Shown here: piece by piece, positions 40,001 through 46,000 of the stretch
How positions within the stretch are numbered: position 1 is the first letter of the stretch
Layout: every line of letters starts with the position of its first letter
Source: Escherichia coli
GTDB lineage: Bacteria > Pseudomonadota > Gammaproteobacteria > Enterobacterales > Enterobacteriaceae
NCBI RefSeq assembly: GCF_051903065.1
Contig: NZ_CP178439.1
Strand: one strand, 5' to 3'
Length of the DNA stretch: 64,000 nt
Made by a program: the position numbers

Positions 40001-43000
40001 AAAATGATGATTGAAAATGATAAAGAAAAAAGCCTGAACGATGCTACCCCGCCAGAGGTGCAGAATGACATCCGCAGCGAATCCACTGAAAAATCAAAGG
40101 AAATGGGTCGTTCAAGGTACTCATCTATCGCGATGATCGATTACTTCAATGCAATCGAACGTCTGTGCAAAGAGAAAGAAATTAACCCGGAAAATATCGA
40201 TCTGAGCTTCAAAGTTCACTGGCTCAGAAACGCTGTTGGCGGCTCGTTTGCAAGGTCACAGGAGATGTTCGCGGAGTACCAGAAGTATGTTAAAGAGGTT
40301 CCTGAAGAGGCCCGTTACCTGGATATACCCGATGAGGTAAAGGTTGCACTCGGCGATATTATCTCGTACATCACCTGGCACTACCGTAGAAGCTATACCG
40401 CAATACAGAATGATAGTGTTAAAAAAGCTGAAGCACGTAGCATGCAGCTGGAGGAGGAGGTAACGCAGCTGTTACAGCGGCTTGAGCAAAGCGCTACCGA
40501 TATGGATGAGCTGAAACTTGAGAATCAGGCACTACAGGGTCGATTAGAGATCCGGGACAGTACCGTCAAGGAGTTAGAAACAAGGCTGAATGTTGCCGAA
40601 GCAGAACTCGAAACCTGCCATCACCAGTTAGATAGCACACGGCATGAATTGAGCCTCGCACAGCAGTCAAATGACTCACTCTCCCAGCAACTGGCTGAAC
40701 GTAAAACAGAGATCGCTGGTCACCTTGAATATCAAAAAAAGCTGAACGAAGAGATCAACACGCAGCGTTCTGATAACGCCGGTCTTTCCAGACAATGCGA
40801 CCAGTTAAGTCAGACTGTGTCAGATACAAAGGCAGAGAGGGACAGGTTTGAACAGGAATTGATTGCTGCACAGAACCTTTGTACTGAGCTGAAAAGTGCA
40901 CTGTCCGGGAAAGAGGGTGACCTGGTGGCGGTGAATGCCGAGCTTACTGAACTCCATAAACTAAACGAGTCGCTGAGCGCCGACCTGAATAAAGTAACTT
41001 TGGTCAGCCAGGGCTATGAAGCGGAAGTGGCTGAACAAAGCAATGAACTCAAAACGCTCCAGGCCAAAGTAATGAAGCTGGAAGCTACCCTGGAGGCGGA
41101 GAAAACAATCTCAGAATCCCTAAAAGGCACCATTGATACATTAACTGGTGCAATGGCAGGGGGAGGTACTGGAAAGTCAAAACAGCCGCGTAGCAGAAAA
41201 ACATCATGATAAATGAAGCCAGGTTGATACACTTCTCTGCATCCCCTGGCACATAAGAACTTCTGCGGACATTCAGCCCGTCCGCAGGAGTTTTCGTCCT
41301 TCAGTCAACAAATGCACTACCTTTTTTGAGTCTCCACTTTCCAGAGCAGAAAACACGTTACCGATTCTACCAACAGCTTGTATCTGAGTGATAACCCCAG
41401 TCTTGTAATCATCTAGGATCCCTGACAGGAAAGCGTTCAGTTTTGTCTGTTCGCTTAGCGAAAGCATGTAGGACATTTTTTCTCCATTTTAAGCAGGTGT
41501 GTCAGTTGAAAGAGGTTTGCGTGATTCTGGAAAATGAGGCAGCACCATAGTTTCAGATGCTGTGGTCGCATCCCAGTGCCACCATCCATAAGGCCCATAT
41601 TCACGGTTGTAATAATCTTTTTTGAGTTGCTTTCGGGCCAGATAAGCAGGAGTGGCCATACCAAATACTTCCATCGGGAACGGCTTATCGCTTTTTGTGT
41701 CGAGCAGGTAGAAGTCAGGGAACACCTCACTAATACTCGCATCATAACGCATGGGCTTAACGTACTGCCGGTGCTCTGCATCCAGCTTTTCTGCAACAAC
41801 CGCCTCATAGGAGGAGTCCAGAGGTATCCAGTTCTCGCTAACGTGCATCAGCACAATTTGATGAGCTCTTACAGAAGGGCCTCTGCCGGTTACCGCAGCT
41901 GGTGACGTCAACGCAAAGACAACTATTTTCGCCCCGGATTTCCATGCTGCGTACTCCGATGAAAATCGTTTCTTTACGCTATCCCAATGGACTTCTGAAT
42001 TGAAAAAAATCAGCGGTAGCCCCCCAAAATTCCGCAGGGGTAAAAATTTAAGTGGCTTCTCATGCTTTTCAGCATCGTAGCGAGGTAAAACTGACAGGAG
42101 CATGAGACGTTTATCACTCATCGCCTGTGATGAAAGACGCTGAATTTGCGACTGAGCGACAGGTTGTTTCGGGTCAGGTACACCAATGAATAAATGGTCA
42201 CCTATGCAGGCTCTGCCGGTACGAATTTGTTTAGCGGTTTCAAGCAGACGATACCGTACCAGTGAATCGTTACGTTTCCCTGCCATTTTCGGGTACCAGA
42301 CATTCAGACCAGACTCTGTCCACAAAAGACTAAGCAAGCCCAGGAGGGTCATTGAGGCCTGACCTCCTTCTGGTCGCTGAACATGGGGCAGGGGAGGCAC
42401 TTCTGATTTTTCAGGAGGATCTTTCTCTGTCATACCGATACCGAGCCTTACAGCCATATCACCTTCGGTTGTAATCCGGACCACACCACTCGCATATCCT
42501 TTCAGGCCGGTATGCCGGGCATCAAGGGAGAAGAATACACAGGAAGGATCATGCTCAATGCCCGTGTTAGCGGCTTTGACGAGAATAAAGGCATCACCGT
42601 TCGGTAAAGCACGAACATAAAGTCGCTTTTCTCCTTTTCCACGACATCCGCAGGTGATGACTGATTTTTGACCTGAGGTGTGGTGTGCCTTTTTAAGAGC
42701 CGACTGCCACCCTTTAGCAAACTCATCCTGCGTTTGAAAGTCAGGTGAATACCTTTTGACGTTTGGATCGTCGTCGTAAGCAATCATCACTGCGAATTTT
42801 TGGCTCATAGTAGTCTCCTAAACAGGAAGTTTAATATCCCAACCAGAGCAACACTTCCTGAGCGTCATACTGTTCCTTTACGCCCATGTCGCTAAAGAAT
42901 TCTTCGAAATCTGTTTCGGGAACGCAATGCCTGGACAGTTCTTGTAATGCTCGTTCTTTAGATACCGTCTCACCTTCAGCTGATTCGAAATACGTCATGG

Positions 43001-46000
43001 TTGACCTCTGACATTATTACAACAATCTTAAGCATTTAAATTGATGAAGGAGCTCAGGTCAGCTGACTTCGTCGTAAAACTGCCGCAAGCGCTGGGAGGC
43101 TGCAAATTCAATTCGTGACTTCAGCAGTTTGGCGACGGCCGCAAAGACATCAACGACCACGGAGTTCCCAAACTGTCTGTAAGCCTGTGTATTGGACACA
43201 GGGATACGGAAAACACTTTCCCCGGGTTTATCGAAGCCCATTAGCCTGCTGCATTCACGTGGCGTTAGCATGCGTGGCCGACGGTCCATGTTGTATGTGT
43301 TATGGAAATCAGTTTCTCCCAGTTCATGAGACCAGCCCCGATCAATAAGAATTTCAGATCCGTCTTTCATATAGCGGCTTGAGAGGGTTCTGGTGACACT
43401 ATTAACATTGGAAGGATCTACTAGTCCAAAACCAAAACCATTGCCTTTTGCCGCATGTTTCTTTGCATAGTTGTATAAGTACTCCCAGAGTTTAGGGGAG
43501 AGGATGTATTTACTATCTACGCTCGGATCCAGTAAATCTGAGAGAGAAGGGCGCTTGTCCGGATAAAAGTCTTTAATGTCTCTCAGAGTAAAACCGTCTT
43601 TCAGACGTAGGTCGCGGCGAAAACCAATAAGGACGATACGTTCACGGTGCTGGGGTCGGAAATGACGGCCATCGATGACTTTAGGATCATCCGCGCCCGT
43701 GCTTTCGCTGTTTGCGACGTCGTAGCCAAGCTCATCGAGCGTTTTCATGATGATGTTAAAGGTATTACCCTTATCGTGACTCTTCAGATTTTTTACGTTT
43801 TCCAGAACAAAAATTGCAGGTTGTTTTGCCCGGATGATCCTGGCCACATCAAAGAAGAGCGTACCCTGAGTGTCGCACTCGAAACCGTGTTTGCGACCCA
43901 TAGAGTTCTTTTTACTGACACCGGCGATGCTGAATGGCTGGCATGGAAATCCCGCAAGAAGAACATCATGATCCGGGATAGAGGCATCGATAAATTTGTA
44001 TGCCTCGTCATCAGTAACCTCGGGCCGGTTGCTAAGAGTGATGTCACGGATGTCTGAATTGAAGCGGTGCTCGTTCTCATCGCAATACCAGTTCGCCCGG
44101 TAAGTACGGCTGGAATAAGTATTCCATTCGCTCGTGAAAAGACATTTACCACCGATGGCATCAAATCCGCTTCGCAGTCCACCTATCCCTGCAAACAGAT
44201 CGATAAAGCTAAAGTGCCTGTCCTCATAATCAGCAGGTCGTGAAGGTATTAAAGTCTGTAGATAGCGTCCATCTGCGATACTCAGCTCACAATGCTCAGG
44301 TATGCATGTAACCTGACGTTTAAGGGATGCACGGGACCAATTACTGCCATTTTCATCATTTAATACCTGAGCCAGATATTTCAGGTCATAAATGGTCGAA
44401 GCTGTTAACAAAGTTTTGTGGATCAGAGATGGTGTTTTATCCACATCATTCAGGTCTGTCTCAAGATCATGAGTGTAACGTTTCATCCAAACTCTCTCAG
44501 GAATAATATCTTTGAGATAGATTAACACGCTTAATTTGGATTATTTTTTGGTTCAGGTTCTAAATTTATTGTGATTATTCTGCCTTTAAGTTGCAAAAAG
44601 ATTGGTTTTAAGCCCGCCCATGAAATAATGACTTGTTAAAATACTGCCTGTAAATAGGCTTGTGGATACATGTCTGTACTCAACAAATCAAGGTGAAATG
44701 ATGTTTTTTTTAACAAAGTTACTTTTGCCCATCATGATTGTTGTATTCCCAGTGGCGTCCTGGGGGAACTCAACAACTTTTGAGGCAAAGGTGGTTAAGA
44801 TTGTTGACGGTGACACCATAACTGCGTTGGATGCTCAAAACACAACCATCAAAATACGGATGTATGGTATAGACGCTCCTGAATCTAAACAGGCTTTTGG
44901 CCAAAAAGCAAAACAGGCCTTAACCACAGCTATAGCAACTAAAATCGTTACCGTGATAGACCATGGTACGGATATCTATGGCCGTATGTTAGGTACCATC
45001 TGGTTAGATGGATATGATATCAATGCCTCTATGGTGGACAGTGGATATGCGTGGGTTTATCGGTTCGAAGATAACGCCATTGTCCCTGGCTATATCAAAT
45101 ATGAATCCGCAGCACAAAAGGAGGCAAAAGGGTTATGGGCAGACACCAACCCTGTCCCACCATGGCAGTGGAGACAGGCAAACGAAAAGCCCAGAAAGGT
45201 GAAAGAGAAGAAATAACCATGATGAAAGAGCCTCATCCGTTACTTCAGTTGGTACTAAACGATTCCGGTCGTCTAACCATGCCTGTTTATTATAGAGATC
45301 AACAGTATTGCCCGACTTGCCTTACAAAGGTGTTGAAGAGTGAGGATGGAAGTTTGGCGCACCTCGGGGAAATAAATCAAAATACATGTAGACCTTCTAT
45401 TTCAGTAGTTGTGACAAAAGCAATTATTGAAATGTTATGTGACGGGGAAAAAATATATGTAAATCCAATACGACACCGAGGCCGGGTGCTGGCACCCTCA
45501 GTAATTTTTTCTCCCGACACTCACACTTTCAAACCGTTTATAAATACAGACTATCAGCCTGTGGGAGCAAACTGGAAAAGTGAAAAGGGATATAAACTCG
45601 GTCTGTTTTATCTCAAAGATCGAGCCAACTCTATCAATAAAGAGGAATTTGATTTCATTGCCGTTATAGACCCTGAGGCAATGCAGAAAGAATTTATTTC
45701 GGCCTGGTCTGAGGTTGATGAAAAAAATCCATTGGAAACGCTGAAGCAGATCTTACGATCTAAAAACAACTCTTCTTTATGGGTAAAATGGCCTGGCAAA
45801 ATTGAGCATGCGCAAAAAGGAAATTACAACGAAAATTACTGGTTCGATTATCAATCTGATAATCAGGAAGTGAACTGTACGGTCTCTGTTGTAGGTATCG
45901 AAGGTAACAGTTCCGGTGAGACAATTTATAGATTGCAAACTTTGCTAAAGCGTAAGCTCAATGAATATCAACTGGTTCGGTCTTTAGGGACTATTATGCT

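Follow-up and report, generated by a model that had tools for sequence, protein, structure and literature searches.

The four genes described here lie on the Escherichia coli contig NZ_CP178439.1 (assembly GCF_051903065.1). All coordinates are positions in the 64,000-nucleotide (nt) stretch of that contig that was analysed, referred to as the window. Four open reading frames follow one another on the minus strand at positions 43059–44528, 42831–42998, 41489–42808 and 41273–41476. They encode, in the order of reading, a cytosine-5 methyltransferase of the Dcm type, an acidic protein of 55 amino acids (aa) termed p55, a protein of the DUF1173 family and a 67 aa protein termed p67. The initial annotation, made from the sequence alone, had described four co-directional, tightly spaced genes here, and all four open reading frames were located. 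The intergenic gaps along dcm, p55, DUF1173 and p67 are 60, 22 and 12 nt, and each gene is preceded by its own Shine-Dalgarno sequence.

The locus is a stretch of IncHI2 plasmid backbone. The 4.3 kb around it are found with at least 99% identity in 1,133 plasmids of PLSDB, which come from Escherichia, Salmonella, Enterobacter, Klebsiella and other hosts and are typed mostly as IncHI2A / MOBH / MPF_F. When IncHI1A is compared with IncHI2, the four genes show nonsynonymous divergence (pN) of 0.12–0.25 and synonymous divergence (pS) of 0.74–0.92; therefore all four are under purifying selection. With 1,133 near-identical plasmids and pN far below pS, the four open reading frames are genuine genes and not chance open reading frames.

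IncHI1A and IncHI1B plasmids share this gene order, as do IncHI-like elements that are less closely related. The IncHI-like elements compared, in which DUF1173 is 52–82% identical, represent Photorhabdus, two metagenomic lineages and one Enterobacteriaceae lineage. All of them display a block that consists of an SNase gene and, divergent from it, dcm, p55 and DUF1173, followed by a convergent pair of genes for a coiled-coil and a DUF4942 protein. Across these elements the gap between p55 and DUF1173 is constant (22–27 nt), and that between dcm and p55 ranges from −4 to 128 nt. p67 is restricted to the closest IncHI-like lineages, and the stable trio across the clade is only dcm, p55 and DUF1173. 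Every one of the four genes also occurs alone in unrelated elements. Thus the term four-gene operon, as first used, overstates the unity of the genes.

In several natural IncHI2 plasmids, insertion sequences (IS) of the IS21, IS3 and ISCR1 families are present inside the 4.3-kb stretch (PLSDB hits H1, H3–H5 and H7–H12). The insertions hit DUF1173 or the methylase separately, so either gene can be lost from the locus, at any rate where the host is dcm-positive.

The maximal open reading frame of the methylase gene is 489 aa long and begins with a GTG at position 44528. An alternative ATG at position 44486 gives 475 aa, has a GAGAG Shine-Dalgarno sequence and agrees with the PGAP annotation in pSTM6-275 and pM160133_p1; it is more probably the start, and the gene is given here as 43059–44486 on the minus strand. 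The protein matches the Pfam domains DNA_methylase (E-value = 5.6e-75) and DNA_meth_N, and scores 845.7 bits against the NCBIfam model PRK10458 (DNA cytosine methylase), whose cut-off is 710. The top PADLOC model is oMTase, an orphan methyltransferase. Aligned with Dcm of E. coli K-12 over 438 aa, the sequence shows 65% identity and zero gaps, the variable/target-recognition region included, and it is 72% identical to the IncHI1 orthologue. Motifs I (FxGxG), IV (PCQ), VI (ENV), VIII (QxRxR) and X (GNSV; FGNSVV) all align with those of E. coli Dcm. The close resemblance to Dcm and M.EcoRII noted initially is thus upheld by the model score, the ungapped identity and the full set of catalytic motifs.

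A search of the window and of related IncHI loci detected no Vsr homologue, as the initial annotation had said of this locus, and no neighbouring gene matches the EcoRII-type, another restriction endonuclease or the Vsr family in NCBIfam or PADLOC. Because neither Vsr nor an EcoRII-type partner is found, the gene is regarded as an orphan dcm. The accompanying statement that no recognisable restriction endonuclease is present is true for these named families, but the 439 aa DUF1173 protein does contain a domain with the PD-(D/E)XK nuclease fold.

The ungapped 65% identity to Dcm strongly suggests that the plasmid methylase is specific for CCWGG. Orphan methylases are a major class of plasmid anti-restriction (PMC11541004). 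When pKAZ3 lacks its orphan dcm, EcoRII restriction is approximately 2,700-fold higher if the donor is without a chromosomal dcm (PMC11602122). A literature search found no functional study of the IncHI dcm. By the precedent of pKAZ3, anti-restriction would be the best-supported function of the IncHI methylase given established knowledge. One of the candidates offered initially, an anti-restriction module with an orphan methylase, had pointed the same way; it matches the absence of an EcoRII-like or Vsr partner and now has an experimental precedent.

The favoured explanation, to which we assign a probability of roughly 0.6, is that an orphan Dcm anti-restriction gene leads a lineage-specific IncHI backbone operon of independently distributed mobile-element genes. 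Inside the donor, the methylase would modify the CCWGG sites of the plasmid at their inner cytosine. With about 2–3 CCWGG sites per kb, the approximately 250-kb plasmid would then arrive pre-protected against EcoRII-type restriction, and the protection would hold even for moves from or into hosts without a chromosomal dcm. p55, DUF1173 and p67 would be co-transcribed behind dcm while also being independent on other mobile elements. The observed/expected ratio of CCWGG on the plasmid is 0.76–0.93. The site is not avoided, and therefore there are many sites to protect. The same ratio was also considered as a mark of restriction pressure or of deamination decay, for which an under-representation this mild is uninformative.

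The DUF1173 gene (41489–42808, minus strand) encodes 439 aa, of which residues 26–393 match PF06666 (DUF1173) with an E-value of 5.7e-39. A confident structure model displays an N-terminal Zn-binding domain, a helical linker, an OB-like domain at about residues 230–325 and a C-terminal domain with the PD-(D/E)XK nuclease fold at about residues 328–415. The Cys-rich segment reported initially is present as the motif C53-x-C55...H86-x3-C90. These putative Zn ligands are invariant in the family, with 99–100% conservation among 161 DUF1173 cluster representatives. In the nuclease domain of the same representatives, conservation is 96% for E335, 98% for K351, 93% for P364-D365, 98% for D370, 93% for E380 and 93% for K396. 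The alpha-beta-beta-beta-alpha-beta core of the PD-(D/E)XK superfamily is present in the model, with E335 on helix 1, P364-D365 at the start of strand 2 and E380 on strand 3. In the E...PD...(D/E)xK signature, position 382 is Phe instead of the canonical Lys, and K351 (98%) or K396 (93%) might stand in for it.

Fold matches of DUF1173 are led by the catalytic domain of I-Bth0305I (score 6.8, 19% identity) and by RAP domains (6.8 and 6.5). These are followed by Bax1 (6.4), VRR-NUC (6.3), Vsr (6.1), the XisH-like structure 2okf (5.8) and Hjc (5.6), and by OB folds of RPA, SSB and the MCM N-domain at about 5. No solved structure or Foldseek match covers the whole protein. A literature search for functional studies of DUF1173/PF06666 found none, the only paper being a computational one from 2010. 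That paper proposed a zinc motif of the form CxC...Hx3-5C at the N-terminus and, at the C-terminus, a PD-(D/E)XK-like domain that lacks a conserved active site (PMC3045609). Contrary to the latter assessment, the aligned sequences indicate that the acidic triad E335/D365/E380 is kept in most of the family. DUF1173 is therefore read as a Zn domain followed by an OB-like domain and by a nuclease domain that is probably active. The retained E...PD...ExF triad would fit a predicted DNA-binding, metal-dependent endonuclease.

The match to the Vsr fold, beside a methylase of the Dcm type, raises the possibility that DUF1173 is a Vsr substitute, nicking the T:G mismatches that arise from deaminated Dcm-methylated cytosines and filling the position that vsr has beside chromosomal dcm. 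This proposal has weak support and is judged very improbable. True membership of the Vsr family (PF03852) was considered and rejected, as DUF1173 shows no sequence or profile similarity to it (no Pfam match; hhalign 3.7%).

The distribution of DUF1173 bears on whether the protein belongs with the methylase at all. Homologues are found in 3,316 of the 72,556 PLSDB plasmids (about 4.6%), among them plasmids of Klebsiella, Acinetobacter, Burkholderia, Rhizobium, Pseudomonas, Pantoea and others. A library of 1.84 billion proteins yields 1,170 DUF1173 cluster representatives. The family is practically absent from phages. Neighbourhoods were examined at 80 DUF1173 loci from distinct species genomes, which were scanned with an alignment of 14 closer sequences, and with a window of 8 kb for methylases. 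A C5-methylase lies within that distance at a single one of the 80 loci. An SNase gene is found near DUF1173 at three, and a p55 or p67 homologue at none. The 25 commonest clusters of neighbouring genes contain no methylase family. A Klebsiella IncHI-like plasmid has the divergent pair of SNase and DUF1173 without dcm or p55, and in Pseudomonas and Massilia elements DUF1173 adjoins ParB, ParA and integrase genes.

A contig of Photorhabdus tasmaniensis (L101:4137-4809) provides a natural experiment. Its dcm has lost residues 144–437 and keeps only residues 16–143 and 438–475, with p55, DUF1173 and p67 all intact. The deletion beside an intact DUF1173 argues against a restriction-modification relationship, with the caveat that a chromosomal dcm could mask lethality. 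In large plasmids of K. pneumoniae (PLSDB hits H165–H169), DUF1173 is often annotated as two fragments, with about 69% query cover. This suggests recurrent or inherited pseudogenisation in those plasmids.

These observations weigh on the proposal of a restriction-modification system resembling type II, or of a methylation-linked defence system, in which CCWGG without methylation or other unmodified DNA would be cut by DUF1173 and self DNA protected by Dcm. The methylase does adjoin a nuclease-fold protein with a conserved acidic triad, the operon is tight, and the nuclease domain displays a weak domain-level PADLOC match to the candidate defence protein PDC-S68 (E-value = 8.3e-5). Moreover, the evidence against is itself open to the masking effect of the chromosomal dcm present in most hosts. 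However, in type II systems the nuclease occurs in dependence on a linked methylase, and DUF1173 is distributed without such coupling. The Photorhabdus element has lost dcm and kept DUF1173, IS elements disrupt either gene separately in natural IncHI2 plasmids (PLSDB hits H1 and H5), and many plasmids of K. pneumoniae carry DUF1173 in split form. PADLOC-DB v2 gives no system-level match; only methylase models match, and p55 and p67 match none. The genes around DUF1173 are those of maintenance and recombination and not those of defence islands. DUF1173 as a family is not the methylase's partner. Since its spread is independent of methylases, a restriction-modification or methylation-linked defence role is most unlikely, and it was rejected on the neighbourhood statistics, the natural Photorhabdus deletion and the lack of a PADLOC system match. 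The uncharacterised methylation-linked defence system that the initial annotation had offered as one candidate is unsupported on the same ground, as its sole nuclease-like component occurs independently of methylases (1/80 loci, the dcm-less Klebsiella plasmid and Photorhabdus).

The commonest neighbour of DUF1173, at 25 of the 80 loci, is a tyrosine-recombinase-like gene (Pfam Phage_integrase, E-value = 4.6e-5). Its product has an N-terminal helix-turn-helix and its coding region ends 4 nt inside the DUF1173 start; these loci, among L014–L093 (e.g. L090:6982-9200), are mostly from Betaproteobacteria. The arrangement suggests a recombinase–DUF1173 operon in integrative elements. Next in frequency are primase, ParB, ParA, DUF932, serine recombinase, PLD nuclease and UmuC/UmuD genes. 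These neighbours are typical of mobile-element maintenance. From such contexts DUF1173 may be read as a recombination accessory factor, acting in excision or multimer resolution with a site-specific recombinase and kept in IncHI plasmids for maintenance, unrelated to Dcm. This is a tentative and, on balance, unlikely reading: no recombinase adjoins DUF1173 in IncHI plasmids, only one betaproteobacterial clade, whose DUF1173 has 23–26% identity to that of IncHI, shows the association with a recombinase, and the fold matches are generic for PD-(D/E)XK. Under the explanation led by an orphan anti-restriction dcm, DUF1173 is a widespread gene of plasmids and integrative and conjugative elements, whose product would most likely serve the recombination or processing of the element's own DNA intermediates and not restriction.

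p55 (42831–42998, minus strand) matches phrog_25588 (E-value = 1.8e-24) and ends in WLGY. It contains 13 D+E and 4 K+R residues, a net charge of −9, in keeping with its first description as very acidic. In an alignment of 10 homologues, all 10 have a net charge of −5 to −10, and the conserved positions are Y3, an ExxxH motif, F, G, Y and the C-terminal WLGY. p55 has no match in Pfam, NCBIfam or PADLOC, and these searches give no homology to a known DNA-mimic or anti-restriction family. Homologues are found in 1,475 plasmids and in 35 phage records, 32 of which are Pectobacterium phages. A word-index search of a large database with p55 returns almost only near-identical copies.

In Pectobacterium phage Nobby (Autographiviridae) and its relatives, the p55 homologue is gp02 (L098:796-954), which at the left end of the genome is the first of the early genes read rightward. 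Phage T7 carries its anti-restriction gene (ocr) at the equivalent first-early position. With all 10 homologues acidic and with this position in the phage, p55 is a plausible candidate anti-defence factor. The initial idea of a possible DNA mimic within an anti-restriction module is compatible with this. Behind an orphan dcm, p55 would most likely be a host-takeover or anti-nuclease factor.

Other contexts of p55 homologues are on plasmids, in part beside genes for PD-(D/E)XK-type nucleases. On an Enterobacter MOBF plasmid, the homologue lies 26 nt downstream of a gene for an Mrr_cat nuclease (PF04471, E-value = 3.3e-17), which is membrane-anchored and encoded just downstream of the relaxase (L012:5424-6168). 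Cereibacter plasmids carry the homologue after a DUF2726 protein gene, beside a SAVED/nucleotidyltransferase locus that is CBASS-like (L096:4100-5171). A Burkholderia plasmid has it among small genes. The link between p55 and PD-(D/E)XK nucleases, drawn from about five contexts, is only a lead.

This lead can be extended to a reading in which small, acidic p55 inhibits or accompanies nucleases of the PD-(D/E)XK (Mrr-type) kind, and dcm, p55 and DUF1173 form a functional unit. p55 might shield the plasmid, methylated at the 5 position of cytosine, from methyl-dependent (type IV) restriction once it enters a new host, or it might regulate or neutralise the adjacent DUF1173. The Enterobacter and Cereibacter contexts, the place directly upstream of DUF1173 in all IncHI-like elements at the constant short gap, and the acidic, ocr-like first-early homologue in Nobby all speak for it. 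The independent contexts are about five in all, however, and adjacency to nucleases may be chance. p55 homologues are absent from all 80 of the other DUF1173 loci, so DUF1173 does not need p55, and the protein lacks similarity to known DNA mimics or anti-restriction families. We regard this reading as rather improbable. Similarly doubtful is a further proposal, that the trio is a functional unit of a hitherto undescribed kind, that p55 represents a new family of very small acidic proteins binding PD-(D/E)XK (Mrr-type) nucleases, and that DUF1173 is an active structure- or mismatch-specific nuclease on conjugative or recombination intermediates. Phages, as a first early gene, and plasmids would both employ p55, to disarm methyl-dependent restriction of DNA methylated by Dcm or to restrain the plasmid's own DUF1173.

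p67 (41273–41476, minus strand) is a conserved small protein with no match in Pfam, NCBIfam, PADLOC or PHROG. It shows 59% protein identity with its IncHI1A orthologue, with pN = 0.25 and pS = 0.74. PGAP leaves the gene unannotated in IncHI2 records, whereas records of IncHI1A and IncHI1B plasmids include it; Photorhabdus also has the gene. Homologues of approximately 41% identity occur on a Klebsiella IncF/IncR plasmid, downstream of a serine recombinase gene and between it and an Rpn nuclease gene.

A candidate sigma-70-like promoter, TTTACA-18-CATTAT, is found by consensus scan at 44625–44654 on the minus strand, in the divergent intergenic region common with the SNase gene. A possible internal promoter before p55, TTTAAA-16-TG-AATAAT, lies at 43013–43040 on the same strand. 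Both are weak, and sigma-70-like sites in the region are no more numerous than in shuffled sequence. A terminator-like hairpin with a 9-bp stem and 6 G-C pairs spans the p67 stop codon at 41263–41287 (minus strand). Its T-tail is poor (AAGTTCTTAT). The hairpin probably marks the 3′ end of the transcription unit and may function as an intrinsic terminator.

In the reference IncHI2 plasmid pM160133_p1, the operon occupies 93.7–96.7 kb, with the ter region on one side and the H-NS/HipAB part of the backbone on the other. Its distance from the mobI/MobH/TraD genes (158–165 kb; mobI/MobH at 158–162 kb) is approximately 60 kb, with resistance insertions between. Leading-region anti-defence islands, as Samuel et al. 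reportedly described them in 2024, are among the first transferred genes, next to oriT. With approximately 60 kb separating the operon from mobI/MobH, a leading-region establishment role is therefore unsupported by position, the transfer polarity of the IncHI oriT being left aside. The establishment module that the initial annotation had also considered is thus not shown.

The plus-strand stretch 44662–46115, divergent from the operon, holds a gene for a member of the thermonuclease (SNase) family whose N-terminus carries a signal-like hydrophobic segment, and after it a gene for a protein of about 300 aa with no family match. The divergent pairing of SNase and DUF1173 is kept in IncHI1, IncHI2, Photorhabdus, the metagenomic elements and the dcm-less Klebsiella plasmid. 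Convergent with the operon, at 39177–41209 on the plus strand, are genes for a DUF4942 protein (phrog_38825, E-value = 2e-100) and an overlapping SMC-like coiled-coil protein of about 400 aa, which shows weak PADLOC matches of the LmuB/JetC type. This pair is found beside the dcm–DUF1173 block in every IncHI-like element examined. Elsewhere in the window, nine 240 aa open reading frames with TTG starts are present at 1093, 5466, 6627, 11202, 29294, 32894, 50825, 57642 and 62001. They are probably copies of the IS26 transposase, to judge from IS26 annotations in matching plasmids. If so, resistance mosaics would flank the conserved backbone at about 33.7–49.9 kb that holds the operon and make it an island.

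Much of the multidrug, colistin and heavy-metal resistance in Salmonella, E. coli and Enterobacter is carried by plasmids of the IncHI1 and IncHI2 types. Their wide spread among hosts would be easier to explain if a backbone methylase protects their roughly 250 kb of DNA in advance against restriction at CCWGG. Orphan-methylase anti-restriction is of an already known kind; the passengers p55, DUF1173 and p67 are uncharacterised. The operon, itself well conserved, also gives access to two families that are still unstudied. DUF1173, carried by one in about twenty sequenced plasmids, combines a confident three-domain model that has no solved relative with conserved acidic, catalytic-like residues. 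p55 is a tiny acidic protein common to plasmids and the early region of a phage. Both are unsurprising in kind.

Compared with known systems, the window methylase resembles E. coli Dcm and M.EcoRII in its DNA_meth_N domain, its catalytic motifs and its ungapped identity. Unlike them, it is plasmid-borne, has neither an overlapping vsr nor an EcoRII endonuclease, and is followed by p55 and DUF1173. Like the orphan dcm of pKAZ3 and IncC plasmids (PMC11602122), it is a cytosine methylase that stands alone on a large conjugative plasmid with resistance genes, and by analogy it would be expected to protect CCWGG sites from EcoRII-type restriction. The IncHI gene differs in heading a conserved operon with three more genes.

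The arrangement also recalls the chromosomal dcm-vsr pair, in that closely behind the methylase comes a gene for a protein with a Vsr-like PD-(D/E)XK fold, and in one relative the downstream gene overlaps the dcm stop codon. The downstream genes are nevertheless not of the Vsr family by Pfam and hhalign. DUF1173 is three times larger than Vsr, has Zn and OB-like domains and is mostly found without any methylase. In its nuclease core, with E335, P364-D365 and E380, DUF1173 is similar to minimal PD-(D/E)XK nucleases such as I-Bth0305I, VRR-NUC, RAP and Hjc. It departs from them in the replacement of Lys by Phe382 and in its fusion to OB-like and CxC...Hx3C Zn domains.

p55 resembles T7 Ocr and ArdA in being small and strongly acidic, and in being encoded both by plasmids and, in first early position, by a phage of the T7-like family. 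It differs in having no sequence similarity to them, in being much smaller at 55 aa, and in that conservation falls mostly on hydrophobic or aromatic residues (Y3, F and WLGY) instead of on a patterned acidic surface.

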